A DNA stretch of 49,849 nt, taken from Eubacteriales bacterium (lineage in GTDB: Bacteria; Bacillota; Clostridia; Oscillospirales; CAG-382). The stretch spans positions 1 to 49,849 of the forward strand of contig JAZRKT010000048.1 in the NCBI GenBank assembly GCA_045646465.1, given 5' to 3'. The position numbers and the translations under genes are program-made. The notes under the pieces are model-generated. The model saw only the letters and a list, made by a program, of their open reading frames with translations, did no database searches and was not told the DNA's origin. Positions 446 to 16,881 of the stretch are shown here, one piece after another (within the stretch, counting starts at the first letter, position 1; the number at the start of each line of letters is the position of its first letter).

Positions 446-464
446 GCAGATTAGAGGTTTTTTG

Positions 465-1142
465 ATGTACGCTTCATTCTTTAAAAGAGGCATAGACTTT
501 GTGCTCTCATTTCTTGCACTGACGGTGCTTTCCCCCATTCTTCTGATACTCATAATCTTGGGTGCTGTGATGATGAAAGGTAATCCTTTCTTTACTCAGC
601 TAAGACCCGGTAAGAATGAAAAAATATTCAAGCTTATAAAATTCCGTACCATGACGTGTGAAACAGACGAAAACGGGAAGTTACTTCCCGATGAAGTAAG
701 ACTTGTTCCTTACGGCAAGTTTTTAAGAAGTACAAGCCTTGACGAATTGCCTGAGCTTATAAATATTCTCAAAGGCGATATGGCGGTGGTAGGTCCAAGA
801 CCTCAGCTTGTAAGAGATATGGTGTTCATGTCAGACGAGGTAAGACGTCGCCACATGGTACGCCCCGGACTTACGGGACTTGCACAGTGCAGCGGAAGAA
901 ACAATATGAGCTGGGAGAAGAAGTTTGAATATGACCTTGAGTACATAAAGAAAATCACCTTTTTGGGTGATGTGAAGATTATATTCAAAACTGTTTTTAA
1001 GGTTCTGAAGCGTGACGGAATAACTGAGGACGGTATGGCAACGGCAATGGATTTGGGCGATTATCTGCTGTCTAAGGGTGAGGTTGAAGAACAAGAGTAT
1101 CAATTAAAGCAATCACAGGCAAAAGAGCTTATGGGGGTTTAG
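465..1142 (+). CDS. Initiating phosphoglycosyltransferase (Bac_transf, PglC/EpsL-like)
   Basis: KRGIDF, single hydrophobic helix, FKLIKFRTM, LRSTSLDELPEL, VGPRP, RPGLTGLAQ. ATG at 465 follows GAGG. Confidence 0.93.
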   Translation: MYASFFKRGIDFVLSFLALTVLSPILLILIILGAVMMKGNPFFTQLRPGKNEKIFKLIKFRTMTCETDENGKLLPDEVRLVPYGKFLRSTSLDELPELINILKGDMAVVGPRPQLVRDMVFMSDEVRRRHMVRPGLTGLAQCSGRNNMSWEKKFEYDLEYIKKITFLGDVKIIFKTVFKVLKRDGITEDGMATAMDLGDYLLSKGEVEEQEYQLKQSQAKELMGV

Positions 1143-1143
1143 T

Positions 1144-1677
1144 ATGCGTTTGCTGAAGTGGATATATGAAAAAATACATAAGAAGCCTGCACCGTATTAC
1201 TATAACTACTCACTGATTACCGTCTTTACAAAGCCTCTCAGAAAATGGCTTACAAATGTTGTTGCGGCTAACTGTCCGTTCAATGTTGTAAGAATACTCA
1301 TATACCGCTTATGCGGCTTTAAAATCGGTAAAAATACGTTTATCGGTATGAGATGTTATCTTGATGATATGTGTTACAAAAATCTGATTATCGGAAACAA
1401 TGTTACAATTTCTTACGGTGTCTATTTTACATGTCACAGTCCGTTCCAGAAAAGAGCAAATATTGTCATAAAGGACGGAGCGTATATCGGCATGAGGGCA
1501 AATATACTGAGCCGAAATTCCGACCCCGAGTTTCTTAATACAGGTGTTGTGATTGGTGAAAAATCCATTGTGGGGGCTTGTTCTTTGGTTAATAAGAATG
1601 TTCCCGAAGATGCAACTGCAGTGGGTGTGCCGTGTAGAATTATTCTTTCACATAATAAGAACAAGCATGATGACTGA
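1144..1677 (+). CDS. Left-handed beta-helix (hexapeptide) O-acetyltransferase
   Basis: Hexapeptide repeats KIGKNTFIG, IGNNVTIS, IGEKSIVGACSLVNKNVP...VGVPCR. Confidence 0.85.
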   Translation: MRLLKWIYEKIHKKPAPYYYNYSLITVFTKPLRKWLTNVVAANCPFNVVRILIYRLCGFKIGKNTFIGMRCYLDDMCYKNLIIGNNVTISYGVYFTCHSPFQKRANIVIKDGAYIGMRANILSRNSDPEFLNTGVVIGEKSIVGACSLVNKNVPEDATAVGVPCRIILSHNKNKHDD

Positions 1678-1694
1678 TAACGGAGGGGTTGCGT

Positions 1695-2456
1695 ATGGGC
1701 GAGCTTGTATCAATTATAATGCCGTCATATAACACGGCAAAATTTATATCAGATACAATAAACAGCGTTCTGACCCAGACACATACAAACTGGGAGCTTA
1801 TTATTGTTGACGACTGCTCGACAGATAACACAGATGAGGTTGTGGCGGCATTTAATGACGAAAGAATCAAGTACATAAAAAACGAAAAAAACAGCGGTGC
1901 TGCAGTGTCAAGAAACAGAGCACTGAGGGAAGCCAAGGGCAAGTGGATAGCTTTTCTTGACAGCGATGATTTGTGGGAAAATGACAAGCTTGAAAAACAG
2001 ATAAATTTCATGCTTGAAAAACAGTGCCATTTTTCTTACACAAATTATATTGAGGTTGATGAGGATTCCGTTCCCAACGGAAAAACCGTGACAGGACCTC
2101 GCAAAATCACAAGACACGGCATGTATAACTACTGCTATATGGGATGCCTTACGGTAATGTACAATGCCGAAAAGGTCGGTCTTGTACAGATTGAGGACAT
2201 AAAGAAAAATAATGACTATGCAATGTGGTTAAAGGTTTGTAGGAAAGCCGACTGCTATCTTCTTGATGAAATACTTGGAAAATACAGAATAAGAGGCGGT
2301 TCTATAAGCCGTCACGGATATACCGCACTTATAAAATGGCACTACAGGCTGTACAGGCACGCCGAAAAGAAAAATCCCGTTTCCGCATGTGTTTTAACGG
2401 TGAGAAATCTGTTTTTCGGAGTTTTGAAGAAGCTGTTTTACGTCAAGAAAAAATAA
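1695..2456 (+). CDS. Glycosyltransferase family 2 (TuaG-like)
   Basis: LVSIIMPSYN, WELIIVDDCSTD, IAFLDSDDLW. ATG at 1695 follows GGAGGGG. Confidence 0.93.
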   Translation: MGELVSIIMPSYNTAKFISDTINSVLTQTHTNWELIIVDDCSTDNTDEVVAAFNDERIKYIKNEKNSGAAVSRNRALREAKGKWIAFLDSDDLWENDKLEKQINFMLEKQCHFSYTNYIEVDEDSVPNGKTVTGPRKITRHGMYNYCYMGCLTVMYNAEKVGLVQIEDIKKNNDYAMWLKVCRKADCYLLDEILGKYRIRGGSISRHGYTALIKWHYRLYRHAEKKNPVSACVLTVRNLFFGVLKKLFYVKKK

Positions 2457-2477
2457 TTAACGGAATAAGGTGTAATT

Positions 2478-3377
2478 TTGGAAAGAGAGTCTTTTAAATA
2501 CAAGCTCAGAAGAAAGCTTCAGGCGGCGGCTGGAAGAATTTTGCCAAAGGAGTTCCTGTCGAAGGTGTATTTTAAAATTGTTTTGGGCAAAGACCTGAGT
2601 TTTAAAGATCCCAAGACCTTTAATGAAAAGCTTCAATGGTATAAGCTCTATTATTGTCCCCAAAATCCTCTTGTTGTGCAGGGTGCAGATAAGTACGCAG
2701 CGAGAGAATATGTAAAGAGCAAGGGACTTGAAGATAAGCTTGTTCCTCTTGAAGGTGTGTGGGATAAGCCGTCAGACATTGACTGGGATGTCCTTCCCGA
2801 AAAATTTGTGCTGAAATGCAATCACGGCTGTGCATACAACATAGTTTGCTCAGACAAAGCGTCTCTCGACATAAAAAGTACGAAAAAAAAACTTGCAGGC
2901 TGGCTTAAAGAGGACTTCGGCTTGTTTAATCTTGAACTTCACTACTCAAAAATCAAGAATAAAAAAATCACAGCAGAAAAGTTCCTCGGCAGTTGCATTA
3001 CCGATTACAAATTCTTCTGCTTTAACGGAAAGCCTGAGTTTGTATATGTGTCAACCGACCTTATACATGACAGACAGGCTCAGATAGGATTCTTTTACCT
3101 TGACGGAAAAAAAATGCCGTTGAAGCGTGATGATTATACCGATATAGAAAAGGTTGAGTTTCCGGCGTATTTTGAAGATATGCTGAATGATGCAAAAACT
3201 CTTTGTGGAGATTTTCCCTTTGTAAGGGTGGACTTCTTCATCACTGAAGACAGTTATTATTTTGCGGAGCTGACATTTACTCCAAGTGCCTGCATGATGC
3301 CCTTTAATCCCGATAAATATGACCTTGAATGGGGAAAAATGCTTAATTTCGACGGGTTGATTAAGAATGAAAAGTAA
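2478..3377 (+). CDS. TupA-like ATP-grasp protein (polysaccharide amino-acid ligase), copy 1
   Basis: PKTFNEKLQWYKL, ADKYAAREYV, FVLKCNHG, DYKFFCFNG, FVRVDF, FAELTFTP. Confidence 0.9.
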   Translation: MERESFKYKLRRKLQAAAGRILPKEFLSKVYFKIVLGKDLSFKDPKTFNEKLQWYKLYYCPQNPLVVQGADKYAAREYVKSKGLEDKLVPLEGVWDKPSDIDWDVLPEKFVLKCNHGCAYNIVCSDKASLDIKSTKKKLAGWLKEDFGLFNLELHYSKIKNKKITAEKFLGSCITDYKFFCFNGKPEFVYVSTDLIHDRQAQIGFFYLDGKKMPLKRDDYTDIEKVEFPAYFEDMLNDAKTLCGDFPFVRVDFFITEDSYYFAELTFTPSACMMPFNPDKYDLEWGKMLNFDGLIKNEK

Positions 3378-4416
3378 AAAAAATGTAGCAATAATCGGTC
3401 ATTTCGGCGGGAAAGAAAATATTCTTGACGGTCAGACCGTGAAAACAAAAATACTGTATGACGAGTTAAAGTCGGCATCTGATTTTAATATAATCAGAGT
3501 TGATACATATTACAAAAGCAAAAATCCTGTAAAGCTTATGCTTGACAGCGTTATGAGCCTTTTGCGTTGTAAGGACGTGATAGTGCTTTTGTCGGGTAAC
3601 GGCATGAGCTTTTACTTCCCGCTATTGTGCATTTTTGCAAAATGCTTCAAAACACGGGTGTATCACGATGTAATCGGTGGCAACCTTGACAGCTATGTAG
3701 AAAAGCAGCTAAAATTCAAAAAGTATCTGAATTCCTTCATGGTGAACTGGGTCGAAACTGCAAATATGGCTTGTTCTCTGGAAAAGCTTGGAATCAACAA
3801 CACTCAGGTTCTGCCGAATTTCAAGCGTCTTAACATTGTGTCAGATATTAAGACTGACTATGCAGAGCCTTACAGCTTTTGTATGTTTGCAAGGGTTATG
3901 AAGGAAAAGGGCGTTGAAGATGCAATAAATGCAATTCAGCAAATTAATGAAAAATACGGCCAAACCCTGTGCAGGCTTGATATATTCGGACGAATTGATG
4001 ACGGCTACAAAGAACGCTTTGAACAGGTTATGAAAAATGCCTCGGATGCAATTGCTTATAAAGGACAGGTTCCTTATGAAAAAAGCGTTGAGCATATAAA
4101 AGATTACTATGCCTTGCTGTTCCCTACCTATTGGAACGGAGAGGGGTTTCCGGGGACAATAGTTGATGCTTTTTCGGCAGGTCTTCCCGTTATTGCAACC
4201 GATTGGAACTGCAACAAAGAGCTAGTTGATAACGGTGTCAATGGAATGATTTATCCGTCTGATACGGCAAGAAGTCTTACGGATGCAGTGGAGTGGTTTG
4301 TAAGTAACTCTGATAAGGTAATTGACATGAAAAAAGAATGTGTGCAAAAAGCACATGAATTTATGCCTGATAAACATATAGAGAGAATTATCAGTTATAT
4401 CAAAAACTGCAAATAG
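3367..4416 (+). CDS. Glycosyltransferase family 4
   Basis: ARVMKEKGV, FPTYWNGEGFPGTIVDAFSAGLPVIATD (GT-B C-terminal motif). Confidence 0.9.
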   Translation: MKSKKNVAIIGHFGGKENILDGQTVKTKILYDELKSASDFNIIRVDTYYKSKNPVKLMLDSVMSLLRCKDVIVLLSGNGMSFYFPLLCIFAKCFKTRVYHDVIGGNLDSYVEKQLKFKKYLNSFMVNWVETANMACSLEKLGINNTQVLPNFKRLNIVSDIKTDYAEPYSFCMFARVMKEKGVEDAINAIQQINEKYGQTLCRLDIFGRIDDGYKERFEQVMKNASDAIAYKGQVPYEKSVEHIKDYYALLFPTYWNGEGFPGTIVDAFSAGLPVIATDWNCNKELVDNGVNGMIYPSDTARSLTDAVEWFVSNSDKVIDMKKECVQKAHEFMPDKHIERIISYIKNCK

Positions 4417-4491
4417 AACGGCGCTGTCAAAGAAATATGTACGTCAGATGAAAATGATACTCTCTCAATTATAAAACGTCGAGGTGGTTTT

Positions 4492-5031
4492 ATGTGGAAA
4501 CTCAATCACAAGATATTGTATCTTTTATACCTTATTTTTGCTGCAAATTTGCCTTACAGCAGACGCTCGGCATGGGCTAAATCTGTTCGAGGTTTTTTTG
4601 CAAAACATATTGTAAGGCATTTTGGACATGATGCAAATATAGAAAAAAATGCTTATTTTACTCCCGGCTTGTCAATCGGAGACTATTCGAGTATAGGACC
4701 GAGAAGCGAAATTTTCGGTGTTGTAACTATCGGAAACGATGTTATGATGGGACCTGATGTTGTAATTCAGACAAACAACCACAAACATGACAGAACCGAT
4801 ATACCAATGCGTTTGCAAGGGTTTGAAGAACCGAGAGAGGTTGTTATCGGTGACGATGTGTGGATTGGCCAGCGTGTGATTATTTTGCCGGGTGTTACTG
4901 TGGGCAAGGGATGCATAATTGCTGCAGGTGCGGTTGTGACAAAGGATGTGCCGGAGTACTCGGTGGTTGCAGGAGTTCCTGCAAGAGTTGTGAAATCAAG
5001 ATTGAGCGAAGGGACGGTTACGAAAGAGTGA
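4492..5031 (+). CDS. LbH O-acetyltransferase (maltose/galactoside acetyltransferase-like)
   Basis: TNNHKHD, VVIGDDVWIGQRVIILPGVTVGKGCIIAAGAVVTKDVP...GVPARV. Confidence 0.9.
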   Translation: MWKLNHKILYLLYLIFAANLPYSRRSAWAKSVRGFFAKHIVRHFGHDANIEKNAYFTPGLSIGDYSSIGPRSEIFGVVTIGNDVMMGPDVVIQTNNHKHDRTDIPMRLQGFEEPREVVIGDDVWIGQRVIILPGVTVGKGCIIAAGAVVTKDVPEYSVVAGVPARVVKSRLSEGTVTKE

Positions 5032-5927
5032 AGCTTTCAATATGTGTAGTGACCATAAACAGGGCTAAACAGCTTGGCGATGCGTTGGAAAGCTGTTTCA
5101 AGTGCAGCTTGCCTGCCGAAACAGAGTTTGTTGTTATAGATAATGCTTCAACAGATAATACAGAACAAATTGTGCATAAGGTTATGCAAAAATCAGGCTA
5201 CAGCTACTATTATGAAAAATTGAACGAAAACCTCGGTTGCGGAAAAGGCAGAAATTATGCGTATGAAAAAGCAAGCGGTGAATATGTATATGTGCTTGAC
5301 GATGATGCGGTAATTGATTATGAAAAACAGCCCGATTTTTTTGGAAAAGCATTGAAAATTTTGGACGGCAACAAAAAAATAATTACACTTGGCACACAGA
5401 TTTATGATACTGTATGGAAAGAAAACCGTCAGCGTATATCAGGCAGTGAAATTTCCAAGGGTGTATATAAAAGCCTTATGTTTTGCGGCGGCTCACATTT
5501 TTTAAGATGCAGCTTTTTTGAAAAAGAACCGTATTTTGCAAATCAGTACGGCTGCGAGGAGCTTCTCCCGTCATTGAGGGCGATTGATGCGGGTGGAATT
5601 AACGCTTTTTGCCCTGATTTGTTGGTGATTCACAAGCCAATTGCAGATAAGTGGGATTACAGTTGCGAAGAAAATCAGATTTATCTCATAAAGGGTATAA
5701 CTATTTTATATGCAATAAAGAAAATGATATATCCAAGAATTTTCAGTCCTGTACTGAAAGCAGCATTTAAACGCAGATGCAACATGTACCTTAAGGATTT
5801 TGTTGATTATGAGAACAAAGCACAAAAGCTGATTGATGAAACCGTGGGTGTTTTAAAAGGACATGACAGAATTAAGTTCGTTACCGTAATTAAAATGTTT
5901 AAGGATTTCGGAGTATCAATTTTTTAG
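5028..5927 (+). CDS. Glycosyltransferase family 2
   Basis: Likely start is GTG at 5028, overlapping the upstream TGA (GTGA). KLSICVVTINR, VIDNASTD, GRN, VLDDDA. Confidence 0.88.
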   Translation: MKLSICVVTINRAKQLGDALESCFKCSLPAETEFVVIDNASTDNTEQIVHKVMQKSGYSYYYEKLNENLGCGKGRNYAYEKASGEYVYVLDDDAVIDYEKQPDFFGKALKILDGNKKIITLGTQIYDTVWKENRQRISGSEISKGVYKSLMFCGGSHFLRCSFFEKEPYFANQYGCEELLPSLRAIDAGGINAFCPDLLVIHKPIADKWDYSCEENQIYLIKGITILYAIKKMIYPRIFSPVLKAAFKRRCNMYLKDFVDYENKAQKLIDETVGVLKGHDRIKFVTVIKMFKDFGVSIF

Positions 5928-6008
5928 AGTTGTTCGAAAGAGATTGAAATAACATTCATTACTTTGTTGGCATTTTGAGACGAGAACGCATATCAAAGGA
6001 GAAATAAT

Positions 6009-7112
6009 ATGGTTTTTGAAAAAACAGAAATGTGTACCGGATGTGGTCTTTGTGCATCTGTTTGTCCGGCAAAGTGTCTTGAAATAGTGCTTGATGATGA
6101 CGGATTCTATGTACCTAAGCTCATTGACACAAAAGCTTGTGTAAAGTGCGGAATATGTACAAATCTCTGCCCGCAATATATTTTGCCAAAAGAAAATAAT
6201 CCGCTTTCAATATCATCGGCTGTTACTAAGGATGATAAAACTCTTTCCACGGTATCCTCCGGTGGAGTTTGCTATGAAATTTCAAAGCTTGCTTTAGAAG
6301 AGGAAAAACGTGTTTGCGGATGCGTTTATAATTATGAAAAACACAGAGCAGAGCATAAAGTAATTGACAAAATACAAGACCTTGAAGAAACAAAGGGATC
6401 CAAATACATACAAAGCTTTACACAGGATGGTTTTTCTCAAATTTTTGATGGTAATGAATGGGTTGTATTCGGAACACCGTGCCAGATAGCAGCCATAGAT
6501 AAATATGCAAGATTCAAGCAAATCAGGGATAAATTCATTCTTGTTGACTTTTTCTGCCACGGCACACCTTCCATGGATTTGTGGAAAAAATACATCAACG
6601 AACAAGGCGGAAGAAATATTAACAAAATACACTTCCGTTCAAAAGAATTTGGTTGGCATAATTTTTCTCTTAAATTCCTCTATGCAGACGGAAGCGAAAA
6701 ATCGGATTATTTTAAAAATATGTTCTATATTTTCTTCTTCAATAATATGGTACTTACCCGTTCCTGCTATGACTGTCATTTTAAGGCTTTGAAAAGCTGC
6801 GCAGATATCAGAGTGGGAGATTATTGGGGAGAAAAGTATTCTGCAAACAATACAGGTGTTTCCTGCTGCATTGCTTTTACAGATGCAGGCGAAGAAATAG
6901 TTGAACAACTCAGGTCTGAATGTAATATCTGCGCTGAGGAAAAGAGTGATGTGCTTGAAGCACAAATGGTTTCTTCACCACCGCTGAGAAAGGAACGCAA
7001 GAAGCTGTTAAAAGAATTGAAAGGCAAAAAAACACTTAAAAAAATCTATAACACGGATATGTTTGTATACAGAGTTAAATGTAAAGTGAAGTCGATGTTG
7101 GGAGGAAAGTAA
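6009..7112 (+). CDS. Ferredoxin + FrhB/FdhB (F420 hydrogenase beta subunit-like) oxidoreductase of polysaccharide loci
   Basis: Two CxxCxxCxxxCP motifs, SSGG, GSKYIQS, GTPCQI, DFFCHGTPS, SCYDC, DIRVGDYWG. Confidence 0.88.
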   Translation: MVFEKTEMCTGCGLCASVCPAKCLEIVLDDDGFYVPKLIDTKACVKCGICTNLCPQYILPKENNPLSISSAVTKDDKTLSTVSSGGVCYEISKLALEEEKRVCGCVYNYEKHRAEHKVIDKIQDLEETKGSKYIQSFTQDGFSQIFDGNEWVVFGTPCQIAAIDKYARFKQIRDKFILVDFFCHGTPSMDLWKKYINEQGGRNINKIHFRSKEFGWHNFSLKFLYADGSEKSDYFKNMFYIFFFNNMVLTRSCYDCHFKALKSCADIRVGDYWGEKYSANNTGVSCCIAFTDAGEEIVEQLRSECNICAEEKSDVLEAQMVSSPPLRKERKKLLKELKGKKTLKKIYNTDMFVYRVKCKVKSMLGGK

Positions 7113-7115
7113 AAA

Positions 7116-8210
7116 ATGAAAATAGGTGTACTTTCCATGCAAAAGATTTTAAATTACGGTTCTTTTCTTCAGGCTTTTTCATTAAAGAAACAGTTTGAAA
7201 ACAGAGGACACGAGGTTTATTTTATAGATATCGAAGATGGAAAGCATATTGCTTCGGATGATGGAGCTGAAAAATGCGATTTATCCAAGAAATTTGACAA
7301 ATATTTTCTTAAAAGGATAGAGAATTATCTTTTATCAAAGAAAATGATGAAAATTCACATAGAAGATTATAAATCATATCTTGAAACAGACAAAAAGCTT
7401 GACAACGGTGAATGTTTCGACCTGGCTGTAATTGGAAGCGACGAAGTATTTAATTGTACTGTTCCGAGCAAGTGGGGTTTTTCCACACAGCTTTTCGGAA
7501 ATATAAAAAATGCAAAGCACATTGTTACTTATGCTGCTTCATGCGGAAGCACTGATTATGATACTGCCGACGGTTACGGAATAATAAATGAATTGCGTGA
7601 AAGCATGGGAAATTTAGAACACATATCTGTGCGGGATAAGAATACATTTGATTTCGTGGAAAGAATCACGGGATGCACTCCATGTGTAAATATTGACCCC
7701 GTGTTTTTAACTAATTTTGATGAATACATTGGCAAAGTAAATACCAAATTGCCGTATCTTCTTGTGTATGCTTACTCAAACCGTATAACAGACACAGAAG
7801 AGATAAACGCAATAAAACAGTATGCAAAAAGCAAAAATCTTGAAATTGTGTGTGTTGGTATGCAGCAGCGTTGGTGTAAAAATAACATTCCTGCAAATGC
7901 CTTTGAACTGTTAGGTTACGTTAAAAATGCGGACTGCATAGTAACAGATACATTTCATGGAACAGTTTTTTCCATAAAATACAACAAAAAGTTTGTATCA
8001 TTTGTACGCAAAAGCAATTTCAACAAACTCTACGGTCTTTTGCAAACATTCGGATTAACAAGCAGAGCAATTGATACACCGAAAAAATTGAAAGATGTAA
8101 TGGAAACACGAATTGATTTTGACGCAGTTAATGAATGTATTCACTCGGAACAGAAGAAATCATATGAATATTTAGATATGATTTGTTTGTCAGGAGCAAA
8201 AGATGAGTAA
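7116..8210 (+). CDS. Polysaccharide pyruvyl transferase family protein
   Basis: NYGSFLQA, IGSDEVFN, YAASCG, ISVRD, IDPVFL, VTDTFHGTVFSI. Confidence 0.9.
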   Translation: MKIGVLSMQKILNYGSFLQAFSLKKQFENRGHEVYFIDIEDGKHIASDDGAEKCDLSKKFDKYFLKRIENYLLSKKMMKIHIEDYKSYLETDKKLDNGECFDLAVIGSDEVFNCTVPSKWGFSTQLFGNIKNAKHIVTYAASCGSTDYDTADGYGIINELRESMGNLEHISVRDKNTFDFVERITGCTPCVNIDPVFLTNFDEYIGKVNTKLPYLLVYAYSNRITDTEEINAIKQYAKSKNLEIVCVGMQQRWCKNNIPANAFELLGYVKNADCIVTDTFHGTVFSIKYNKKFVSFVRKSNFNKLYGLLQTFGLTSRAIDTPKKLKDVMETRIDFDAVNECIHSEQKKSYEYLDMICLSGAKDE

Positions 8211-9285
8211 TATTGTTTTTATAACCAACAGTATAGGATTTGGCGGTGCGGCAAAAATGCTGTGCTTTATAGCCGAGTCTCTTTCGGAACGTGGACATAA
8301 AGTTCACATAATTAACAGAAATTCAACAACAGATGCTAACAGGAGTCAGAGAGTCTTAAACAAAGATATATCGTATCACCTGTTGGACAATTCTTCAAAA
8401 CTGCGTCAGATTACAGAAATTAAAAAGATTGCCGGCGAAGCAGGTGCTGATATAATAATTGGATTTACGGCATGGCCTAACTTTTACGCAAAAGTTGTCA
8501 GCAGCTTACTGCATATTCCTTCAATTATGAGCGAACGCGGAGATCCCGCAAGAACCACCACAAACACCTTAAAAGCAAAGTTAATTGATTTTGCGGTAAA
8601 CCGTTCCAAGGGCGGTGTGTTTCAGACTGACGGTGCCAAAGAATACTACGGTAAGGGACTTCAAAAACGAGGAATTGTTATTCCAAATCCCATTTTCGTA
8701 AAAGGTGAAATTCCGGATGTTGCTTTTGAAGTAAGAGAAAAATCCGTTGTTTCAGTAGGCAGACTTGATAATGAGCAAAAGCGTTATGATGTTATGATAG
8801 AAGCCTTCAAGCTGTTTTCTGCAAAGCATCCCGAATATGTGCTCAAGCTCTACGGCAGAGGTGAGGATGAGGAAAGAATAAAGCAGTGGGCTGTTGATGC
8901 AAGCATTGAAAATAAGGTGAAATTCATGGGTCTTACTTCTCAGCCGATGCAGGATATAGCCTGTGATGGAATGTTCCTTATAACAAGTGATTACGAGGGA
9001 ATATCCAACTCCCTTCTTGAAGCAATGGCAGTGGGGATGCCTTGTGTTTCAACCGACCACACACCCGGAGGAGCGAGACTGCTTATTACCGATCATAAAA
9101 ACGGACTGCTTGCCCCAATAGCTGACAGTGAGGCGTTGGCAAAAGCAATGTGCGAATTTGCTGAAAACCCGGTTCTTGCAAAAGAGTGCGGCGAAAAGGC
9201 AAAGGATGTGCTTAACCGCTTTGCTCCGGACAGAATTATTGATATGTGGGAAGAGTATATTGTAAAGCTTTGTACGAAAAAATAA
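8203..9285 (+). CDS. Glycosyltransferase family 4
   Basis: GGAAKM, SERGDP, VIPNP, VGRL...KRY, SDYEGISNSLLEAMAVG. Confidence 0.92.
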   Translation: MSNIVFITNSIGFGGAAKMLCFIAESLSERGHKVHIINRNSTTDANRSQRVLNKDISYHLLDNSSKLRQITEIKKIAGEAGADIIIGFTAWPNFYAKVVSSLLHIPSIMSERGDPARTTTNTLKAKLIDFAVNRSKGGVFQTDGAKEYYGKGLQKRGIVIPNPIFVKGEIPDVAFEVREKSVVSVGRLDNEQKRYDVMIEAFKLFSAKHPEYVLKLYGRGEDEERIKQWAVDASIENKVKFMGLTSQPMQDIACDGMFLITSDYEGISNSLLEAMAVGMPCVSTDHTPGGARLLITDHKNGLLAPIADSEALAKAMCEFAENPVLAKECGEKAKDVLNRFAPDRIIDMWEEYIVKLCTKK

Positions 9286-9305
9286 AGCTTTAAGGAGATT
9301 TGTTA

Positions 9306-10544
9306 ATGAATTATAAGCGTAGTGTTTTTACAATCGAGAAAATTGGATTATTGCTCTTGGGAATCTATTTGTTTTTCAGTTTCAATGCCCACGATATTGT
9401 TATTCCCACAAAATATGTCCAGCTTTCCTTGTATGCTTTGCTTGGATGGGGAGTACTGAGTGTTTTCCTTAAACGGAACGTGAAAATCAATATATATATA
9501 ATCTGGTATTTTATTTTTCTGTGTTGGTCAGTTATAACAATGATGTATTCACCCGAAACAAACATTTTCGGCGGAGAGATGCGTCTTATCATCGTCGCCT
9601 TTATAACAGCCTTTATTTTTCAGTTGTTTGTTAACGATGAGGGTGATTTCGAAAAAGTTGCATGGTTTTGTGCCATATCAGCGTTTGTTCTTGTGGCTAC
9701 TCTGCATTTCACGGGCAACCTTGTGGCTGACGCAAACAATCGCTTGGGTGGAGATATCATGGGAAACGCAAATAATTTTGCGGGCATGATTATGTATGCT
9801 GTTATGTTTGAAATATGGCTGATAGTGTATAAAAAATATGCATTACCCGTAAAAATATGTCTGTTTGCTATGATACTGGTAAATTATTATGCTCTTGTTT
9901 TGTCGGCAGGCAGAAAGTTTTTTGTATTGCCAATAATTTTTCTGTATATTTTGCTATTGTACAAGCGTGATAAAAAGGGAAGAGTTCATACAATTAAATA
10001 CACGTTGTTTATTATTGCACTTGTTGCGGTGTTGTATTATTTGTTAATGAATGTCCCTATGTTTTATGACACAATAGGGTACAGAATGGAATCCTTGATA
10101 AACGGCACACTGGGTGTTTCAGAGCATGGTTATTCCGCTGCAATACGTGAAGCAATGAGAAATCTTGCCATTGAAAAATGGATGGATAATCCAATAGTCG
10201 GTCACGGCTTTGACAGCTTTAAATATTTAGCTCGGGAAGAATTTCATCATTTCTTCTACTCACATTGTAACTACACTGAGCTTCTCTACAACGGAGGCGT
10301 AATATATTTCGTTATATATTACTGGATATATTATAAACTGATCAAGACAGTATTAGAACGAAAATATGTAGACAGCAAGTATAGAGCGTTTGCAATGGGC
10401 ATTGCGTTGAGCCTTTTGGTTTTTGATTACGGTGCAGTTACATACAGCATATCATATGTTCAATTCTTAATTGCGCTTTCTTTTGTTGTTTTGGATTTCA
10501 AAACAGATAAAGAAGATGTTTCAGTCGGAGGTAAAAATGAGTAA
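9306..10544 (+). CDS. wzy: Wzy polysaccharide polymerase / O-antigen ligase family membrane protein
   Basis: Many TM segments. RLGG...NANN, SAGRK, NPIVGHG, HCNYTELLYNGG. Located inside a GT cluster. Confidence 0.82.
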   Translation: MNYKRSVFTIEKIGLLLLGIYLFFSFNAHDIVIPTKYVQLSLYALLGWGVLSVFLKRNVKINIYIIWYFIFLCWSVITMMYSPETNIFGGEMRLIIVAFITAFIFQLFVNDEGDFEKVAWFCAISAFVLVATLHFTGNLVADANNRLGGDIMGNANNFAGMIMYAVMFEIWLIVYKKYALPVKICLFAMILVNYYALVLSAGRKFFVLPIIFLYILLLYKRDKKGRVHTIKYTLFIIALVAVLYYLLMNVPMFYDTIGYRMESLINGTLGVSEHGYSAAIREAMRNLAIEKWMDNPIVGHGFDSFKYLAREEFHHFFYSHCNYTELLYNGGVIYFVIYYWIYYKLIKTVLERKYVDSKYRAFAMGIALSLLVFDYGAVTYSISYVQFLIALSFVVLDFKTDKEDVSVGGKNE

Positions 10545-11469
10545 AATAAGTACATTTATAAAACTGTTGAAAAATGACCGCAAAAGAATATATGGTGCAT
10601 TTATACTGAATTTATCAAAAACAAGTTTTTCACATTTGATTTCCGATAAGCATTTTTTGAAAATGCAGTATAAGGCTGCATTCGGCAAAAAATTGAATCT
10701 GAACAATCCTGCAACATATAACGAAAAGCTTCAATGGCTGAAGCTTTATGACAGAAACCCCAACTATACCAAAATGGTTGATAAGTATGAAGTCAAAGAA
10801 CATGTTGCAAATTTAATCGGAGAAGAATACATAATTCCAACAATTGGTGTGTGGGACAACTTTGACGACATTGATTTTGACAAACTCCCTGAAAAATTCG
10901 TACTGAAATGCACCCATGATTCAGGCGGAATTGCCATTTGTACCGACAAAAGCACATTTGATATTGAAGAAGCGAAAAAGCTACTTGTTCCCCGTCTGAA
11001 ATACAACATGTTCTGGCACGGAAGAGAATGGCCGTACAAGAATGTCAAGCCCCGTTTCATTGTGGAAGCCTACATGGAGGATTCAAACACCAAAGAATTA
11101 AGGGACTATAAGTATTTCTGTTTTAACGGCGAGCCGAAGGCGATATTTATTGCCGCCGACAGACAGAACAAGGAAAAGGAAACAACCTTTGACTTTTTCG
11201 ATATTGAAGGAAAACACATGGCGGTACGCAACGGTCACCCCAATGCGGAAAATCCCCCTGCTTTGCCCGGTAACTTTGAAAAGATGAAGGAATTGGCATC
11301 AAAGCTGTCAAAGGACATACCTCATGTAAGAGTTGACTTTTATGAGGTTGACGGAAAGATTTATTTCGGCGAGCTTACATTCTTCCATTACAGTGGAATG
11401 GTACCCTTTGAACCGGGAGAATGGGATTATACATTCGGAAGTTGGATAAGGCTTCCCGAAAAGAAGTAA
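10537..11469 (+). CDS. TupA-like ATP-grasp protein, copy 2
   Basis: NPATYNEKLQWLKLYDR, VDKYEVK, FVLKCTHDSG, DYKYFCFNG, HVRVDFY, FGELTFF. ATG at 10537 follows GGAGG. Confidence 0.92.
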   Translation: MSKISTFIKLLKNDRKRIYGAFILNLSKTSFSHLISDKHFLKMQYKAAFGKKLNLNNPATYNEKLQWLKLYDRNPNYTKMVDKYEVKEHVANLIGEEYIIPTIGVWDNFDDIDFDKLPEKFVLKCTHDSGGIAICTDKSTFDIEEAKKLLVPRLKYNMFWHGREWPYKNVKPRFIVEAYMEDSNTKELRDYKYFCFNGEPKAIFIAADRQNKEKETTFDFFDIEGKHMAVRNGHPNAENPPALPGNFEKMKELASKLSKDIPHVRVDFYEVDGKIYFGELTFFHYSGMVPFEPGEWDYTFGSWIRLPEKK

Positions 11470-11499
11470 TTTTTGTTTCAGTCAATAAAAGGACATGTT

Positions 11500-12951
11500 A
11501 TGGATAAGAATATAGATAAAAAAATCGGTAAAGCAACCGTGTGGTCATCTGTAACAGAAATACTATCACGTATCATTTCTCCTTTAGTGAATATGGTATT
11601 GGCGAGGATCTTGGCTCCTGAAGCTTTTGGTGTCGTAACTACCATAACAATGGTGATAAGCTTTGCAGAAGTTTTCTCGGATGCAGGTTTTCAAAAATAC
11701 ATCATACAGCATGAATTTGAAAATGAAGATGAACTGAATAAGAGCACAACAGTTGCTTTTTGGACAAACTTTATTCTGTCACTGATAATTTGTGGGATAA
11801 TTTTTGTTTTCAGACATCGGATTGCTGTTATTGTCGGAAGTCCCGGCCTTGGAAATTCAATAAGCATTGCTACAATTTCAATGATATGTGTTGCGTTTTC
11901 AAGTATACAGACAGCAAGGTTTCGTAGAAGCTTTGATTTCAAGTCATTGTTTTTTGTTAGAATAGGAACAGCAATAATTCCCGTTGTAGTAACTATTCCG
12001 TTGGCACTTTTACTCAGAAACTATTGGGCTTTGTTAATTGGAATTATTTCAAGCAATATGTTCAGTGCTGTTGCACTTACTATAAAATCTAAGTGGAAAC
12101 CAACATTTTTTTACAATTTTAAATTGTTTAGGAAAATGTTCTCATTTAGTGCGTGGACTCTTCTTGAGAGTATTTCTGTTTGGTTTACGTCATATGTTGA
12201 TATATTTGTTGTTGGTACGTTCCTTTCAAGTCATCAACTTGGATTGTATAAAACTACAATGACAACTGTTAATGCCTATATGGCGATTATTACTGCGGCA
12301 ATAACACCTGTGCTGTTCTCATCTCTGTCAAGATTTCAAAACGATGACGAAAAATTCAGCAAAACATATCTTTCTTTCCAACAAAGAACAGCGATTTTTG
12401 TTATTCCAATGGGGGTTGGAATGCTGCTTTACAGTAACCTTGTGGTGAAAATTCTTCTTGGAAATCAGTGGATGGAAATAAGTCGCTTTATGGGACTTTG
12501 GGGGTTAATGAGTGCTTTTAGTATTGTTCTTTCTCACTTTTCAAGCGAGGTATATCGTAGCAAAGGAAAACCGAATGTTTCTCTTGTGATGCAGATAATA
12601 CACCTGTTGTTTCTAATTCCCACTTTACTATTGAGCATTCCGTATGGATTCGAAGCGCTTTATACCGCGCGTTCTTTTATAAGACTTCAGATGGTTGTTT
12701 CGGCACTGATCATTATGCATCTTATGTTCAGAATAAAGGTAAATGACATTTTTCGTAATTTGTTTTCAATACTTTTATCAACAGCAGTTATGACAGTAGC
12801 AGGGCTATTCCTGAAGAAAATAAGTGATGGTAGCTTTATTCTCGATATTGTTTCTATATTTATTTGTATGATAGTTTACTTTTCAACACTTTTTGCAGTT
12901 TCTCGTCAATTTAGAAAAGAGATTATAACCAATAGATTTTTTAAAAAATAA
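11500..12951 (+). CDS. wzx: Wzx flippase (polysaccharide biosynthesis exporter)
   Basis: LARILAPEAFG, FSDAGF, 12-14 TM segments. ATG at 11500 follows AAGGA. Confidence 0.9.
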   Translation: MDKNIDKKIGKATVWSSVTEILSRIISPLVNMVLARILAPEAFGVVTTITMVISFAEVFSDAGFQKYIIQHEFENEDELNKSTTVAFWTNFILSLIICGIIFVFRHRIAVIVGSPGLGNSISIATISMICVAFSSIQTARFRRSFDFKSLFFVRIGTAIIPVVVTIPLALLLRNYWALLIGIISSNMFSAVALTIKSKWKPTFFYNFKLFRKMFSFSAWTLLESISVWFTSYVDIFVVGTFLSSHQLGLYKTTMTTVNAYMAIITAAITPVLFSSLSRFQNDDEKFSKTYLSFQQRTAIFVIPMGVGMLLYSNLVVKILLGNQWMEISRFMGLWGLMSAFSIVLSHFSSEVYRSKGKPNVSLVMQIIHLLFLIPTLLLSIPYGFEALYTARSFIRLQMVVSALIIMHLMFRIKVNDIFRNLFSILLSTAVMTVAGLFLKKISDGSFILDIVSIFICMIVYFSTLFAVSRQFRKEIITNRFFKK

Positions 12952-12978: not shown

Positions 12979-13890
12979 GTGGATGCACTATCATTAGACA
13001 GAAAGCAATTTGAATTGATTAACTGCAATTTTGTCAAAACTGTGCTTATGCTGTTGGTTGTTTTATATCATAGTTGCGTGTTTTGGACAGGAAGTTGGTT
13101 CAATATTTTAGCTCCGAGTGGAAATTCTGCTGTACTCGAATTGTTTTCTAAATGGCTGAACTCTTTTCACATATACGGCTTTGCTCTTGTTTCTGGCTAC
13201 ATATTTTATTACATAAAGTACGAAAAAGAAAAGTACAACGGATTATTACCTTTTTTAGTTAATAAAGCAAACGCCTGCTTGTTCCATATGTGTTTGTTTC
13301 GGTATATTGGGTCATTCCTATAGTAGCATTTTTCTATAGTTACGGTGTGAAAACCTATGTGTTGAATTATGTTTTGGCTGTTTCACCGTCACAATTGTGG
13401 TTTTTGTTTATGCTTTTTAGCTTGTTTGTAATGTTCTATCAAATAAGCAACATAGTTCATCGCCAATATGGGAGCAGCATTTTGCGAAAAAATACCGTCA
13501 TTTATATGGATTGTTATACATATTGTGCTGTTTTTACTCACAGAATACATAAAAGACTTTGAAGGCATTTTCTTTAAGCTTTTTGGGATGGGTCTTGAGT
13601 TTATTTTAAATATAGCTGGAGCTTTAATGGCTTTTGTAGTACTTCAGAGAATTGCCGAAGCTGTAAATTGGCAGAATTCAAAAGTTTTTGGATATTTGAG
13701 TAAGAATTCAATGCCGGTATATTTGTTTCATCAACAAATAATATATTTTGTCATCTACTATCTGAACGGTATAATAAATCCCCATTTACACGCCCTGCTG
13801 AATTTTGTTGTTTCATTGTCAGTATCTTTGCTTATTTCTTGTGTTTTTATGAAGTTTAGAGTTACAAGATTTTTAATTGGCGAAAAATAA
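12979..13890 (+). pseudogene. Acyltransferase-3 (OafA-like) O-acyltransferase split over three frames
   Basis: ORFs 12979-13323, 13290-13562 and 13468-13890 carry successive family motifs (LVVLYH, FALVSGY, QLWFL, NSMPVYLFHQ). Adding one A at ~13270 restores KRLLVPY. Confidence 0.8.
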
Positions 13891-13904: not shown

Positions 13905-15077
13905 ATGTCGGTAAAAGAAACCTTCGAATCCATCTACCACCGTCCCCCAATAAATGTCGCCTTCACGCCCTACCGCATATGTCCCTTGGGTGCCCACAGC
14001 GACCATAACTTAGGTAAAATCACAGGCTTTGCCATAGATAAAGGCATCCATATAGCCTACGGTCCAAAACAGAACGGAGTAGTTGAAATACAGTCGGTGC
14101 AGTTTGAGGGCAGAGCACAGTGGCATGTAAATGCAGTTTCCGAGCAGAAGTGCGGCGATTGGGCAGACCATTTGAGAGGCGCAACAATTGCACTGGGTAA
14201 AAGATATCCTCTGAGAACCGGACTTTGTGCTGTTGTTGACGGAGAACTTCCTGTTGGCGGACTTTCCTCCTCGGCGGCAGTTATCATAACCTTTGTAAAT
14301 GCACTTTGTAATATGAATAATATTACCCTTACCGAACGTGAGCTTATCACAATTTCCAAGGAAGCCGAGAATAAGTACGTGGGTGTTGCCTGCGGAAAGC
14401 TGGACCAGTCCTGCGAGATTTATTGCAGAAAGAATCATCTTCTGTATATGGATATGCTTGATGATAGCTATGAGCTTATCCCGCAGAATGAAAATATGAA
14501 GCCCTATAAAATTGCAATTTTCTTTTCGGGCCTTGAAAGAAGTCTTGCAGGCTCAGCTTTCAATATGAGAGTTGATGAGTGCAGAAGTGCAGCGTATGCT
14601 CTCAAGGCTTTTGCAGGTATGGAATACGGTAAGTTTGAAGAAACAAATCTTCGTGATGTTCCGAGAGAAGTGTATGATAAGTATAAGGAAAAACTTCCCG
14701 AGAACTGGAGAAAGCGTGCAGAGCACTGGTATACCGAGTTTGAAAGAGTTGAAAAGGGTGCCGAGGCTTGGAGAAACGGAGATATTGCTGAGTTTGGCAA
14801 GCTTAGCTCTCAAAGCGGTTATTCTTCAATTTATAACTGGGAAACAGGCTCTCCCGAGCTTAAAAAGCTGTACGAAATAATGATGCATACCGACGGAATA
14901 TACGGCGGACGTTTTTCGGGTGCAGGCTTTAAGGGATGCTGTATGGCACTTATTGACCCGAATTTTGAAGACAGCATTAAAAAGAAGGTACAAAGCGAGT
15001 ATCTGAGAGAATTCCCGAATCTTGCAGAAAAGTATTCTGCTCATATCTGTGAAACAGCGGATGGTGTAAAATTATGA
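13905..15077 (+). CDS. GHMP-family sugar 1-kinase, galacturonokinase-like
   Basis: GHMP motifs GGLSSSAA, CGKLDQ and GGRFSGAGFKGC. N-terminal PYRICPLGAHSDH instead of the GalK PGRVNLIGEHTDY. Confidence 0.85.
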   Translation: MSVKETFESIYHRPPINVAFTPYRICPLGAHSDHNLGKITGFAIDKGIHIAYGPKQNGVVEIQSVQFEGRAQWHVNAVSEQKCGDWADHLRGATIALGKRYPLRTGLCAVVDGELPVGGLSSSAAVIITFVNALCNMNNITLTERELITISKEAENKYVGVACGKLDQSCEIYCRKNHLLYMDMLDDSYELIPQNENMKPYKIAIFFSGLERSLAGSAFNMRVDECRSAAYALKAFAGMEYGKFEETNLRDVPREVYDKYKEKLPENWRKRAEHWYTEFERVEKGAEAWRNGDIAEFGKLSSQSGYSSIYNWETGSPELKKLYEIMMHTDGIYGGRFSGAGFKGCCMALIDPNFEDSIKKKVQSEYLREFPNLAEKYSAHICETADGVKL

Positions 15078-15808
15078 AATGTTTGATTCTTGCGGCAGGC
15101 TATGCCACACGACTTTATCCTTTGACGGAAAATTTCCCAAAGCCTTTGTTAGAAATTGGTAATAAAACAATTCTTGACTGGCTTGTTGATGACATTGATA
15201 CTCTCGGCGTTGTTGATGAATATGTTGTAATCACAAATCATAAATTTGCCCATCACTTTGAAAGTTGGTCAAAGACAAAGAAGCAGAAAATGACGGTTGT
15301 TGATGACGGTACAAGCAGTAATGAAACACGCCTGGGTGCTGTCAAGGACATTCAGTTTGCAATGGAAAAGCTTGGTATAGATGACGATGTTCTTGTAATC
15401 GCAGGAGATAACGTGCTTGACTTCAGCCTTACAAGGTTTGTGTCTTATGCACTTGATAAAAAGGCTAGCTGTATCATGCGTTACTATGAAAAGGACGACA
15501 AACGTCTTACCAAGTGCGGTGTGTGTGAAATAGACGAAACAGATAAAATACTGTCTATGGAGGAAAAACCGCAGACTCCTAAGAGCAATTGGTGCTGTCC
15601 TCCCTTTTACTACTTTACAAAAGGGGATGTAGAGCTTGTTGGAAAGGGGATAAATGAAGGCTGCGGAACAGATGCTCCCGGCTCGTATATTGCGTGGCTT
15701 TGTAAACAGACAACTGTATTTGCTATGGAAATGCCGGGATCAAGATATGATATCGGCAATCTTGAAAGCTATGAAAAGGTAAAAAAGGAGTATAAGGGTA
15801 TATGCTGA
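15074..15808 (+). CDS. Sugar-1-phosphate nucleotidyltransferase (NTP_transferase)
   Basis: LILAAGYATRLYPLT..PKPLL, IAGDN, EEKP, YDIG. Overlaps the kinase stop (coupled). Confidence 0.9.
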   Translation: MKCLILAAGYATRLYPLTENFPKPLLEIGNKTILDWLVDDIDTLGVVDEYVVITNHKFAHHFESWSKTKKQKMTVVDDGTSSNETRLGAVKDIQFAMEKLGIDDDVLVIAGDNVLDFSLTRFVSYALDKKASCIMRYYEKDDKRLTKCGVCEIDETDKILSMEEKPQTPKSNWCCPPFYYFTKGDVELVGKGINEGCGTDAPGSYIAWLCKQTTVFAMEMPGSRYDIGNLESYEKVKKEYKGIC

Positions 15809-16881
15809 CACCTAATGTCAACCTTGAAAATAAAACCGTACTTGTTACGGGTGCTTGCGGATTTATCGGAGCAAACCTTGTGACAAAGCTGTTTGAAACA
15901 TATAAGAATATCACCGTTGTTGGCATCGACAGTATGAATGACTACTACGATGTTTCAATTAAGGAGTATAGACTTGAAGAAATAAAAAGGCTTTCATACT
16001 CCAAAGATGGAGCAAACTGGATTTTTGTAAAGGGAAATATTGCAGATAAAGAGCTTTTGACAAGCCTTTTTGAAAAATATTCCTTTACCGTTGTTGTAAA
16101 CCTTGCGGCACAGGCAGGTGTCAGGTATTCCATTACAAACCCCGATGTGTATATTGAAAGCAACATTATCGGCTTTTACAATATACTTGAGGCCTGTAGA
16201 AAGTATCCTGTTGAGCACCTTGTTTATGCAAGCTCCTCAAGCGTGTACGGCTCAAATAAGAAGGTGCCATATTCCACAGACGATAAGGTTGACAATCCCG
16301 TTTCTCTTTATGCTGCAACAAAAAAGAGTAATGAGCTTATGGCACATGCTTACTCAAAGCTGTATAATATTCCTTCAACAGGACTTCGTTTCTTTACGGT
16401 TTATGGTCCGGCAGGAAGACCTGATATGGCATACTTCGGCTTTACAAATAAGCTGATAAAGGGACAGACAATTGAAATATTCAACTACGGTAATTGCAAG
16501 AGAGATTTTACTTACGTTGACGATATAGTTACGGGCGTTATGCACGTAATGGAAAATGCACCCGATAAGAAGGATGGGGAGGACGGACTTCCGCTTCCTC
16601 CTTACAGAGTGTATAACATAGGCAATTCAAACCCCGAAAATCTTCTTGACTTTGTTACGATACTTCAGGAGGAGCTTATACGTGCAAAGGTTCTGCCGGA
16701 GGATTATGATTTTGAAGCACATAAAAAGCTTGTACCTATGCAGGCAGGAGATGTTCCCGTGACCTTTGCGGAGACAAGTGCACTTGAAGAAGACTTCGGA
16801 TTTAAGCCTTCCACAACACTCAGACAGGGACTCAGATACTTTGCCGAGTGGTACTATGATTTTTATATCAAGGAGAAATAG
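15802..16881 (+). CDS. UDP-glucuronate 4-epimerase (extended SDR, CapI/LpsL-like)
   Basis: TGACGFIG, NDYYDV, NLAAQAGVRYS, YASSSSVYG, SLYAATKKSNE, LRFFTVYGPAGRPDMA. Confidence 0.92.
   Translation: MLTPNVNLENKTVLVTGACGFIGANLVTKLFETYKNITVVGIDSMNDYYDVSIKEYRLEEIKRLSYSKDGANWIFVKGNIADKELLTSLFEKYSFTVVVNLAAQAGVRYSITNPDVYIESNIIGFYNILEACRKYPVEHLVYASSSSVYGSNKKVPYSTDDKVDNPVSLYAATKKSNELMAHAYSKLYNIPSTGLRFFTVYGPAGRPDMAYFGFTNKLIKGQTIEIFNYGNCKRDFTYVDDIVTGVMHVMENAPDKKDGEDGLPLPPYRVYNIGNSNPENLLDFVTILQEELIRAKVLPEDYDFEAHKKLVPMQAGDVPVTFAETSALEEDFGFKPSTTLRQGLRYFAEWYYDFYIKEK

Follow-up and report, generated by a model that had tools for sequence, protein, structure and literature searches.

How might a gut bacterium in whose genome no uridine diphosphate (UDP)-glucose dehydrogenase (Ugd) is found supply its capsule with uronic acids? 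The question is raised by three adjacent genes in a 49,849-nucleotide stretch of DNA from Eubacteriales bacterium (GCA_045646465.1, contig JAZRKT010000048.1, positions 1-49,849 of the forward strand; hereafter the window). They encode a GHMP-family sugar kinase, a small sugar-1-phosphate nucleotidyltransferase (NTT) and an epimerase of the extended short-chain dehydrogenase/reductase (SDR) class, and they stand beside a Wzx/Wzy-type polysaccharide locus.

A first-pass annotation had proposed that the three constitute a pathway leading from free D-galacturonate (GalA) through GalA-1-phosphate to UDP-GalA, which would be interconverted with UDP-D-glucuronate (UDP-GlcA). Gene neighbourhood and phylogenetic profiles support this as a candidate pathway, and we think it probable that the trio is a cytoplasmic module for uronic-acid activation that feeds the capsule locus. 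The reading is supported by gene structure, family placement, synteny and phylogenetic profiles, from which we infer the activities, the sugar, the nucleotide and the composition of the polymer.

The kinase and its relation to plant galacturonokinase

The three open reading frames (ORFs) lie in the same orientation on the + strand. The ATG of the NTT overlaps the TGA stop of the kinase by 4 nt (ATGA, in the junction TTATGA/ATGAAA), and the NTT and epimerase overlap by 7 nt at ATGCTGA. The translational coupling that had been noted for the trio is thus confirmed.

The kinase contains the Pfam domains GalKase_gal_bdg (PF10509), GHMP_kinases_N (PF00288) and GHMP_kinases_C (PF08544). Against the NCBIfam galK model TIGR00131 it scores 207, where the cut-off is 226.65, and against four other NCBIfam galK models it scores 110-210, with cut-offs of 385-509, so that it falls below all five equivalogs. 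Residues 22-34 read PYRICPLGAHSDH. HMMER alignment to solved archaeal galactokinases pairs this stretch with GRVNLIGEHTDY, placing Ala30 at the position of the galactokinase Glu and His34 at that of the Tyr; in the alignments of the kinase to its nearest solved structures, which are galactokinases (E = 1e-35 or weaker), GRVNLIGEHTDY is aligned with YRICPLGAHSDH. The kinase therefore has GAHSDH where GalK has GEHTDY, and the BLASTP alignment with E. coli GalK agrees. The replacement of the galactokinase Glu by Ala, on which the first-pass annotation had remarked, is evident in both alignments. Ala30 is invariant in an alignment of 30 family members; of 75 orthologs, 74 share it and the other has a gap there. 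Arg24, Asp33 and Asp167, which serve catalysis and sugar binding, are retained both here and in 74-75 of the 75 orthologs; Arg24 and Asp167 align with the catalytic residues of GalK, and the ATP-binding motif is intact (LPVGGLSSSAA).

By BLASTP the kinase is 36% identical to the galacturonokinase (GalAK) of Camellia sinensis (V9QNR1, over 409 columns) and 28% identical to E. coli GalK (b0757). The segments KRAEH (RRAEH), EAW..G...FGKL, SG.SSI.N and RFSGAGF.GCC are common to the kinase and V9QNR1, and so the plant-type segments recognised in the first reading all find their counterparts in an actual alignment. When 1.84 billion cluster representatives were searched exhaustively with HMMER, 9175 matches were obtained at E <= 1e-3. 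Among the best 150 of these, the signature P[YL]R..P.GAH.DH occurs in 78 of the 95 proteins of at least 340 amino acids (aa); library protein P0213 is UniRef V9QNR1 itself, named 'galacturonokinase'. The Tyr of the YNxR motif, present in E. coli GalK and as Tyr263 in the Camellia protein, is Phe219 here. At this position 66 of the 75 orthologs have Phe, seven Tyr, one Val and one Leu, and the wider family mixes Tyr and Phe. It had been anticipated that annotation pipelines would call such a protein a galactokinase. This holds for some relatives, which bear the names 'galactokinase' or 'galactokinase family protein', but others are called 'GHMP kinase', and one IMG entry reads 'galactokinase/galacturonokinase'.

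Six library proteins (P0123, P0124, P0136, P0137, P0176 and P0197) have the first 240-310 residues of a P0121-like kinase joined to unrelated domains, namely AAA_25, recombinase, SIS, the C-terminal part of Ugd, and NTT. We considered the long proteins as Rosetta-stone fusions of the kinase, and read them instead as chimeras of truncated kinases created by assembly or gene calling; the 570-aa P0176 has no GHMP C-terminal domain.

The placement of the kinase was analyzed using a quick IQ-TREE phylogeny with SH-aLRT branch support. Its 95 rows were the query, 21 locus ORFs and 73 representatives that were restricted to 355-440 aa and to the motif pattern, excluding fragments, long chimeras and non-matching rows. 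A branch with a support of 100 divides the tree into 76 and 19 rows. On the larger side are the query with its four orthologs and 71 representatives, among them the Camellia galacturonokinase. The smaller side holds E. coli GalK, five canonical galactokinases of relatives, two G..Y representatives, and 11 rows of a third class. The kinase thus sides with plant GalAK and away from canonical GalK; grouping with canonical GalK had been named beforehand as part of what would refute the first-pass reading.

That third GalK-like class, of about 430 aa and with the motif PGRSEISGNHTDH (GNHTDH), forms its own clade of 11 rows with a support of 100, apart from both GalK and GalAK. Most of the genomes inspected from the order have it, including the present one (C34:11670-12773, locus L002).

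A profile built from 30 kinase family members separates the classes in a phylum-wide sample. GalAK-type proteins score 526-552 bits, and the next matches, GEHTDY galactokinases, no more than 313 bits. Of 29 phylum-wide loci checked, two were of GalAK type, 26 had GEHTDY and one had GGHTDY. A phylum-wide search at E<=1e-60 (95/401) returned mostly canonical galactokinases, and 95/401 is therefore not a count of the family. Given the scores below cut-off, the GAHSDH motif and the separate clade, the protein is predicted not to be a canonical galactokinase. We regard it as a candidate galacturonate 1-kinase, possibly acting also on D-glucuronate (GlcA).

Partners of the kinase in the window and in related loci

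We scanned the neighbourhood of the kinase in 80 loci, taking one genome per species. The kinases in these are 67-81% identical to that of the window, and most of the loci come from gut or rumen metagenome-assembled genomes (MAGs) of Clostridia. In 74 loci, out of 77 with room downstream, the gene next after the kinase is the NTT. In three of the remaining six the contig ends, in two the NTT is absent despite room (L078, L088), and in one it is found upstream (L112). An ortholog of the epimerase is present in 55 of the 80, Ugd in 25 and a TupA-like ATP-grasp protein in 12; the locus dehydrogenase reaches 616 bits against the Ugd model NF011631 and lies above the TIGR03026 cut-off. Writing K, N, E and U for kinase, NTT, epimerase and Ugd, the gene orders are KNE (23), KN (21), KNEU (15), EKN (8), EUKN (4) and others (9). 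Where at least 9 kb is available on both sides (39 loci), the epimerase is found in 27, Ugd in 11 and neither in 11. The association persists in more distant genomes. In G672 a kinase and the NTT that follows it each show 42% identity, and in G490, which belongs to another order, a kinase-NTT-epimerase-Ugd-PF14907 string recurs at 69-78% identity. The arrangement of kinase and NTT is thus not fortuitous.

Nine loci (L071, L081, L096, L098, L099, L102, L104, L107 and L108) are in MAGs labelled Bacteroidales, Bacteroidaceae, Prevotellaceae, Muribaculaceae, Abditibacteriota or Opitutales. Their kinases are 69-76% identical to that of the window, and the NTT is present in seven of the eight with room downstream. 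Such orthologs in other phyla suggest either that gut phyla have exchanged the module horizontally or that contigs were misbinned.

The NTT matches NTP_transferase (PF00483) at 5.9e-31 and otherwise only PF12804 and PF01128. It scores far below the cut-off of every NCBIfam equivalog, the values (cut-offs) being 86.6 (400) for AglF, 55.9 (360.65) for rmlA and 50.8 (326.8) for galU. Its best relatives in the PDB are RmlA enzymes, at only 1e-15, and its relatives in the ESM Atlas bear generic names only. The domain of plant UDP-sugar pyrophosphorylase (USP; UDPGP, PF01704) is absent from its Pfam matches, and the NTT is unrelated to that enzyme. We propose, from its company, that it is a uronate-1-phosphate uridylyltransferase; UTP is the proposed donor because the epimerase and Ugd both use UDP-sugars.

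The epimerase matches the NAD-dependent epimerase/dehydratase family PF01370 at 1e-53, with GACGFIG at residue 17 as the GxxGxxG motif, Ser145 as the catalytic Ser/Thr, and Y170AATK174 as the YxxxK motif. Its best match in the PDB is 5u4q (2.3e-108, 366 bits), labelled there 'dTDP-glucose 4,6-dehydratase', which we take to be of the Klebsiella Uge/GlaKP type. Among characterised UDP-GlcA 4-epimerases, BcUGAepi (6zl6) matches at 2.6e-35 (125.8 bits) and MoeE5 at 3e-32 (115.7 bits). WbgU, a UDP-HexNAc 4-epimerase, stands above both (4e-39, 138 bits), so distance to characterised enzymes is not decisive. The sequence ASSSSVYG aligns with SSSATVYG of E. coli GalE, placing S145-S146-S147 where GalE has S-A-T. 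In PMC7984243 the carboxylate contacts of BcUGAepi are given as Thr126, Ser127, Ser128 and Thr178; Thr126 is described as the positional homologue of GalE Ser124, and decarboxylases have Glu at the position of Ser128. Mapped onto BcUGAepi by position, rather than by direct alignment, Ser145-Ser146-Ser147 would fit the pattern of a UDP-GlcA epimerase. In kinase-less genomes, moreover, orthologs of the epimerase mostly adjoin Ugd, which supports its assignment as a UDP-glucuronate 4-epimerase (EC 5.1.3.6). Its relatives carry generic or wrong labels, such as 'GDP-mannose 4,6-dehydratase'.

Supply of UDP-uronates and the polymer locus

We have examined the distribution of the three genes in 401 genomes of the order, all at least 90% complete except the present one (G000). 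Of these, 24 carry the kinase, 23 the NTT and 31 the epimerase, and 21 of the 23 NTT-bearing genomes also have the kinase. Eleven of the 31 epimerase-bearing genomes have neither kinase nor NTT, and every one of these has an NDP-sugar dehydrogenase. Ten of the dehydrogenases, found by the TIGR03026 search, are full-length Ugd and mostly adjoin the epimerase; for the eleventh (G413), the first residues of Ugd lie at the contig edge immediately after the epimerase. Conversely, the 11 epimerase-bearing genomes without a dehydrogenase all possess the kinase, the NTT or both. Eight have the two together (G000, G022, G207, G256, G308, G313, G349 and G357), G045 has the kinase only, and G234 and G338 the NTT only. 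Both supply routes are present in the other 9 of the 31.

The pattern that emerges is that in the sampled genomes the epimerase ortholog is always accompanied by at least one candidate supplier of UDP-uronate. Fisher's test gives p = 0.002 (11/0 versus 9/11), a value overstated by the kinship of genomes that are not independent, and we therefore treat the complementarity as a pattern only. It sharpened only once the NTT and the contig-edge Ugd of G413 were included. Comparing kinase-positive with kinase-negative genomes, Ugd is absent from 9/18 and 3/13, respectively (p = 0.16), a weak difference.

The present genome is a 1.73-Mb assembly of 148 contigs, 84.8% complete, in which no match to PF03721 or TIGR03026 was found. 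If Ugd is indeed lacking, UDP-uronates would have to come from the module alone. Elsewhere the genome encodes a bona fide GalE (448 bits), and the epimerase of the window is thus not needed to interconvert UDP-glucose and UDP-galactose. The catabolic uronate isomerase UxaC is also present (625 bits), implying that hexuronates reach the cytoplasm. Neither GH28 nor pectinesterase was found in the 84.8% of the genome represented, nor was GalU above cut-off (best score 36 bits). Pectin, which had been suggested as one source of free GalA, would therefore be an indirect one, any GalA having to be released by other members of the community. The further suggestion that uronates are supplied without Ugd agrees with this genome and ten others; it does not hold as a general rule, since Ugd adjoins the module in 25 of the 80 loci. 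Among relatives the module would accordingly work beside Ugd in some and replace it in others.

The features of the window are collected in Table 1. The trio had been placed at the end of the polysaccharide locus. It is indeed near the end, but a tandem pair of paralogous, nucleotidyltransferase-like PF14907 genes begins 9 nt after the epimerase and continues the operon; PF14907 homologs also follow the module in several related loci (e.g., those of G022 and G490, and L039).

Table 1. Coordinates of the features discussed, numbered from the first nucleotide of the window
Feature	Position	Strand	Basis
GalAK-family GHMP sugar-1-kinase, 390 aa	13905..15077	+	ORF listing, Pfam, tree
Small sugar-1-phosphate nucleotidyltransferase (NTT), 244 aa	15074..15808	+	ORF listing, PF00483
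Extended-SDR 4-epimerase, UDP-glucuronate 4-epimerase type, 359 aa	15802..16881	+	ORF listing, PF01370
Two tandem PF14907 (NTP_transf_5) genes, 387 aa each	16891-18054 and 18080-19243	+	Pfam
TupA-like ATP-grasp gene, likely uronate-carboxylate amidoligase	2478..3377	+	PF14305, 3.5e-43
Second TupA-like ATP-grasp gene	10471..11469	+	PF14305, 1.1e-70
Wzx/Wzy-type polysaccharide locus	462..12951	+	Pfam matches
Acyl_transf_3 (Acyltransferase_3) gene in three overlapping ORF pieces	12979..13890	+	ORF listing, PF01757

By Pfam, the Wzx/Wzy locus encodes an initiating Bac_transf sugar transferase, a hexapeptide acyltransferase, GT2 and GT4 glycosyltransferases, an FrhB-like protein, a pyruvyl transferase, Wzy, a Wzx flippase and two TupA-like ATP-grasp proteins. 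According to PMC11800379, the TupA-like domain of Campylobacter Cj1438 forms amides on the C6 carboxylate of capsule GlcA. The two TupA-like genes of the locus thus argue for uronic acids in the polymer. In G045 the kinase is immediately preceded by three such genes.

Between the flippase and the kinase, the Acyl_transf_3 gene is divided into pieces at 12979-13323, 13290-13562 and 13468-13890 (114, 90 and 140 aa). Only the last matches PF01757, at profile positions 217-324, and the gene is either a frameshifted pseudogene or broken by an assembly error. Within the capsule locus, at window positions 6009-8210, an FrhB/FdhB-like Fe-S protein (PF04432, PF04422, 4Fe-4S) is encoded directly upstream of the polysaccharide pyruvyl transferase. 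In another capsule locus, L122, a nitroreductase-like gene and a pyruvyl transferase gene are separated by a 505-aa ORF that has no Pfam match.

A proposed salvage module, its alternatives and known systems

We propose that free uronates are imported from the gut lumen. The kinase would phosphorylate D-galacturonate at C1 with ATP, as its homology suggests, and it may also accept D-glucuronate, the sugar-pocket Tyr being Phe. The NTT, tightly coupled to it, would then join the uronate-1-phosphate with an NTP to give an NDP-uronate, UTP being the likeliest donor. The epimerase, by virtue of its family, would equilibrate UDP-GalA with UDP-GlcA. The UDP-uronates would be used by the glycosyltransferases of the adjacent Wzx/Wzy locus, after which the two TupA-like ligases may amidate the uronate carboxylates.

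A number of observations weigh against this scheme. The genome is incomplete, and the absence of Ugd is therefore unproven; since neither GH28 nor pectinesterase was found in it, pectin would be an indirect source. The plant reference for the kinase was itself named by homology and is only 36% identical, the bacterial members of the clade are known from sequence, and Phe219 in place of the plant Tyr means that the specificity may differ from that of plant GalAK. The NTT belongs to PF00483 and not to the plant USP family, and its nucleotide is not readable from sequence. One RmlA-type enzyme that was tested is given as inactive on GalA-1-phosphate in a passage of PMC9056299, and the NTT family would therefore need a pocket adapted to the carboxylate. 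Nor is the trio always intact. The kinase-NTT pair stands by itself in 21 of the 80 loci, and in 11 of the 39 full-flank loci epimerase and Ugd are both missing from the vicinity. G234 and G338, of one genus, have NTT and epimerase (in capsule loci L122, G234:C43, and L121, G338:C71), and in these assemblies of 96-97% completeness neither a GalAK-type kinase nor an NDP-sugar dehydrogenase was found. In genus g24 the kinase occurs in three genomes without an NTT; the epimerase accompanies it in G045 and G072 but not in G093.

The same module might serve D-glucuronate as its physiological substrate, derived for example from host glucuronides or glycosaminoglycans, with the epimerase running from UDP-GlcA to UDP-GalA. 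Phe219 would be in keeping with this, as would UxaC, which handles both uronates. Yang and colleagues are said to have found in 2009 that in Arabidopsis GalAK the substitution A41E abolished activity and Y250F allowed phosphorylation of GlcA, of which we found no confirmation; if these effects hold, the clade may accept both uronates. To our knowledge, however, the sole characterised member of the kinase clade is a GalA kinase, and Asp33, which in GalK contacts galacto-configured hydroxyls, is retained. Plant glucuronokinase (GlcAK), moreover, is described in part of PMC2823444 as belonging to another GHMP family with almost no identity to GalAK. We consider GlcA unlikely to be the main substrate.

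Could the kinase and NTT activate another capsule sugar, such as galactose, L-arabinose or an amino sugar, their link to uronate genes reflecting no more than shared residence in capsule loci? The loci that carry only the kinase and NTT, and the full-flank loci lacking epimerase and Ugd, would be explained in this way. The Glu to Ala change would also suit a sugar without a C6 hydroxyl, the closest named profiles to the NTT are those of glucose-1-phosphate transferases, and a search of the genome gave no GalU above cut-off. Yet the kinase falls in a clade with plant GalAK, the stop/start overlap extends to a gene of the UDP-GlcA-epimerase type, the module complements Ugd among epimerase-bearing genomes, and the genome has its own GalE. 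Activation of a different sugar therefore seems to us a doubtful explanation. That the kinase is an ordinary Leloir galactokinase of galactose catabolism, mislabelled through divergence, is very improbable, for although it carries the Pfam galactose-binding signature and has relatives named 'galactokinase', it lies below every galK cut-off with GAHSDH in place of GEHTDY, is separated by the fully supported branch from E. coli GalK and the canonical galactokinases of relatives, is patchily distributed (24 of 401 genomes) and always within polysaccharide loci, and is followed by the NTT and not by galT.

Returning to uronate salvage, we lean, with some reserve, towards a broader statement of it. 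The genes may form a mobile, self-contained cassette of gut and rumen Clostridia, carried by transfer into some Bacteroidales and other phyla, which provides capsule uronates from the free GalA or GlcA of neighbours or host and functionally replaces Ugd. Its NTT would represent an unrecognised class of small uronate-1-phosphate uridylyltransferases unrelated to USP, and plant GalAK would be one twig of a mainly bacterial family.

If confirmed, this would be the first bacterial route by which uronic acids are salvaged into nucleotide sugars. It would directly link uronates of dietary or host origin with the making of capsules by Clostridia of gut and rumen that are abundant and for the most part uncultured, and would explain how substrate is supplied in genomes that have a UDP-GlcA epimerase but no Ugd. 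It would also correct a systematic misnaming, as 'galactokinase', 'GHMP kinase', 'GDP-mannose 4,6-dehydratase' or generic 'nucleotidyltransferase'. A further, practical benefit might be a one-pot route to UDP-GalA based on a robust bacterial pair of kinase and NTT, since the authors of PMC7984243 state that they found the plant GalA kinase unstable and of low activity, and that GalA-1-phosphate can no longer be bought.

A full-text literature search, with subscription papers and supplements outside its scope, found no bacterial GalA kinase and no bacterial salvage of uronates to UDP-sugars, in agreement with the first-pass annotation, which knew of no characterised bacterial pathway. GalAK appeared in the literature searched only in plant papers and chemoenzymatic contexts. 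A passage of PMC2823444 mentions that 'a few bacteria' carry GlcAK homologs. The route from free uronates to UDP-uronic acids for a surface polysaccharide has so far been shown only in plants.

In Arabidopsis, GalA is salvaged to UDP-GalA by GalAK (EC 2.7.1.44) together with USP. The proposed module shares the two-step logic of kinase then nucleotidyltransferase, and its kinase belongs to the same GHMP clade, with PYRICPLGAHxDH, RAEH, EAW..G...FGKL, SG.SSI.N and RFSGAGF.GCC in common. It differs in the kinase, which at 36% identity lacks a plant insertion of about 20 residues after the sugar-binding motif and has Phe for the plant Tyr; in the second enzyme, a dedicated 244-aa PF00483 protein in place of the USP of about 600 aa; and in organization, the genes being operonic within a capsule locus and coupled to an epimerase. 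Compared with GalK (TIGR00131; E. coli b0757), the kinase has the same GHMP fold, catalytic Arg and Asp, and ATP-binding PxGGLSSSA, but it is 28% identical, has GAHSDH for GEHTDY, scores below cut-off, falls in another clade and is not accompanied by galT or galM.

The de novo route, in which Ugd acts with an epimerase of the Cap1J/GlaKP/BcUGAepi type, uses the same epimerase family and would arrive at the same end products. Searches for Ugd found none in this genome and ten others, where the kinase, the NTT or both are present instead, whereas in 25 of the 80 loci the two routes lie side by side. A parallel in logic is Fkp of Bacteroides, an L-fucokinase/GDP-fucose pyrophosphorylase that salvages fucose into the capsule. 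In both cases a gut bacterium would activate a free monosaccharide for its surface glycans with a GHMP kinase and a nucleotidyltransferase. Fkp, however, is one fused protein making GDP-fucose, whereas here the kinase and NTT are separate ORFs overlapping by 4 nt, the kinase is of another GHMP clade, and the sugar would be a uronic acid.

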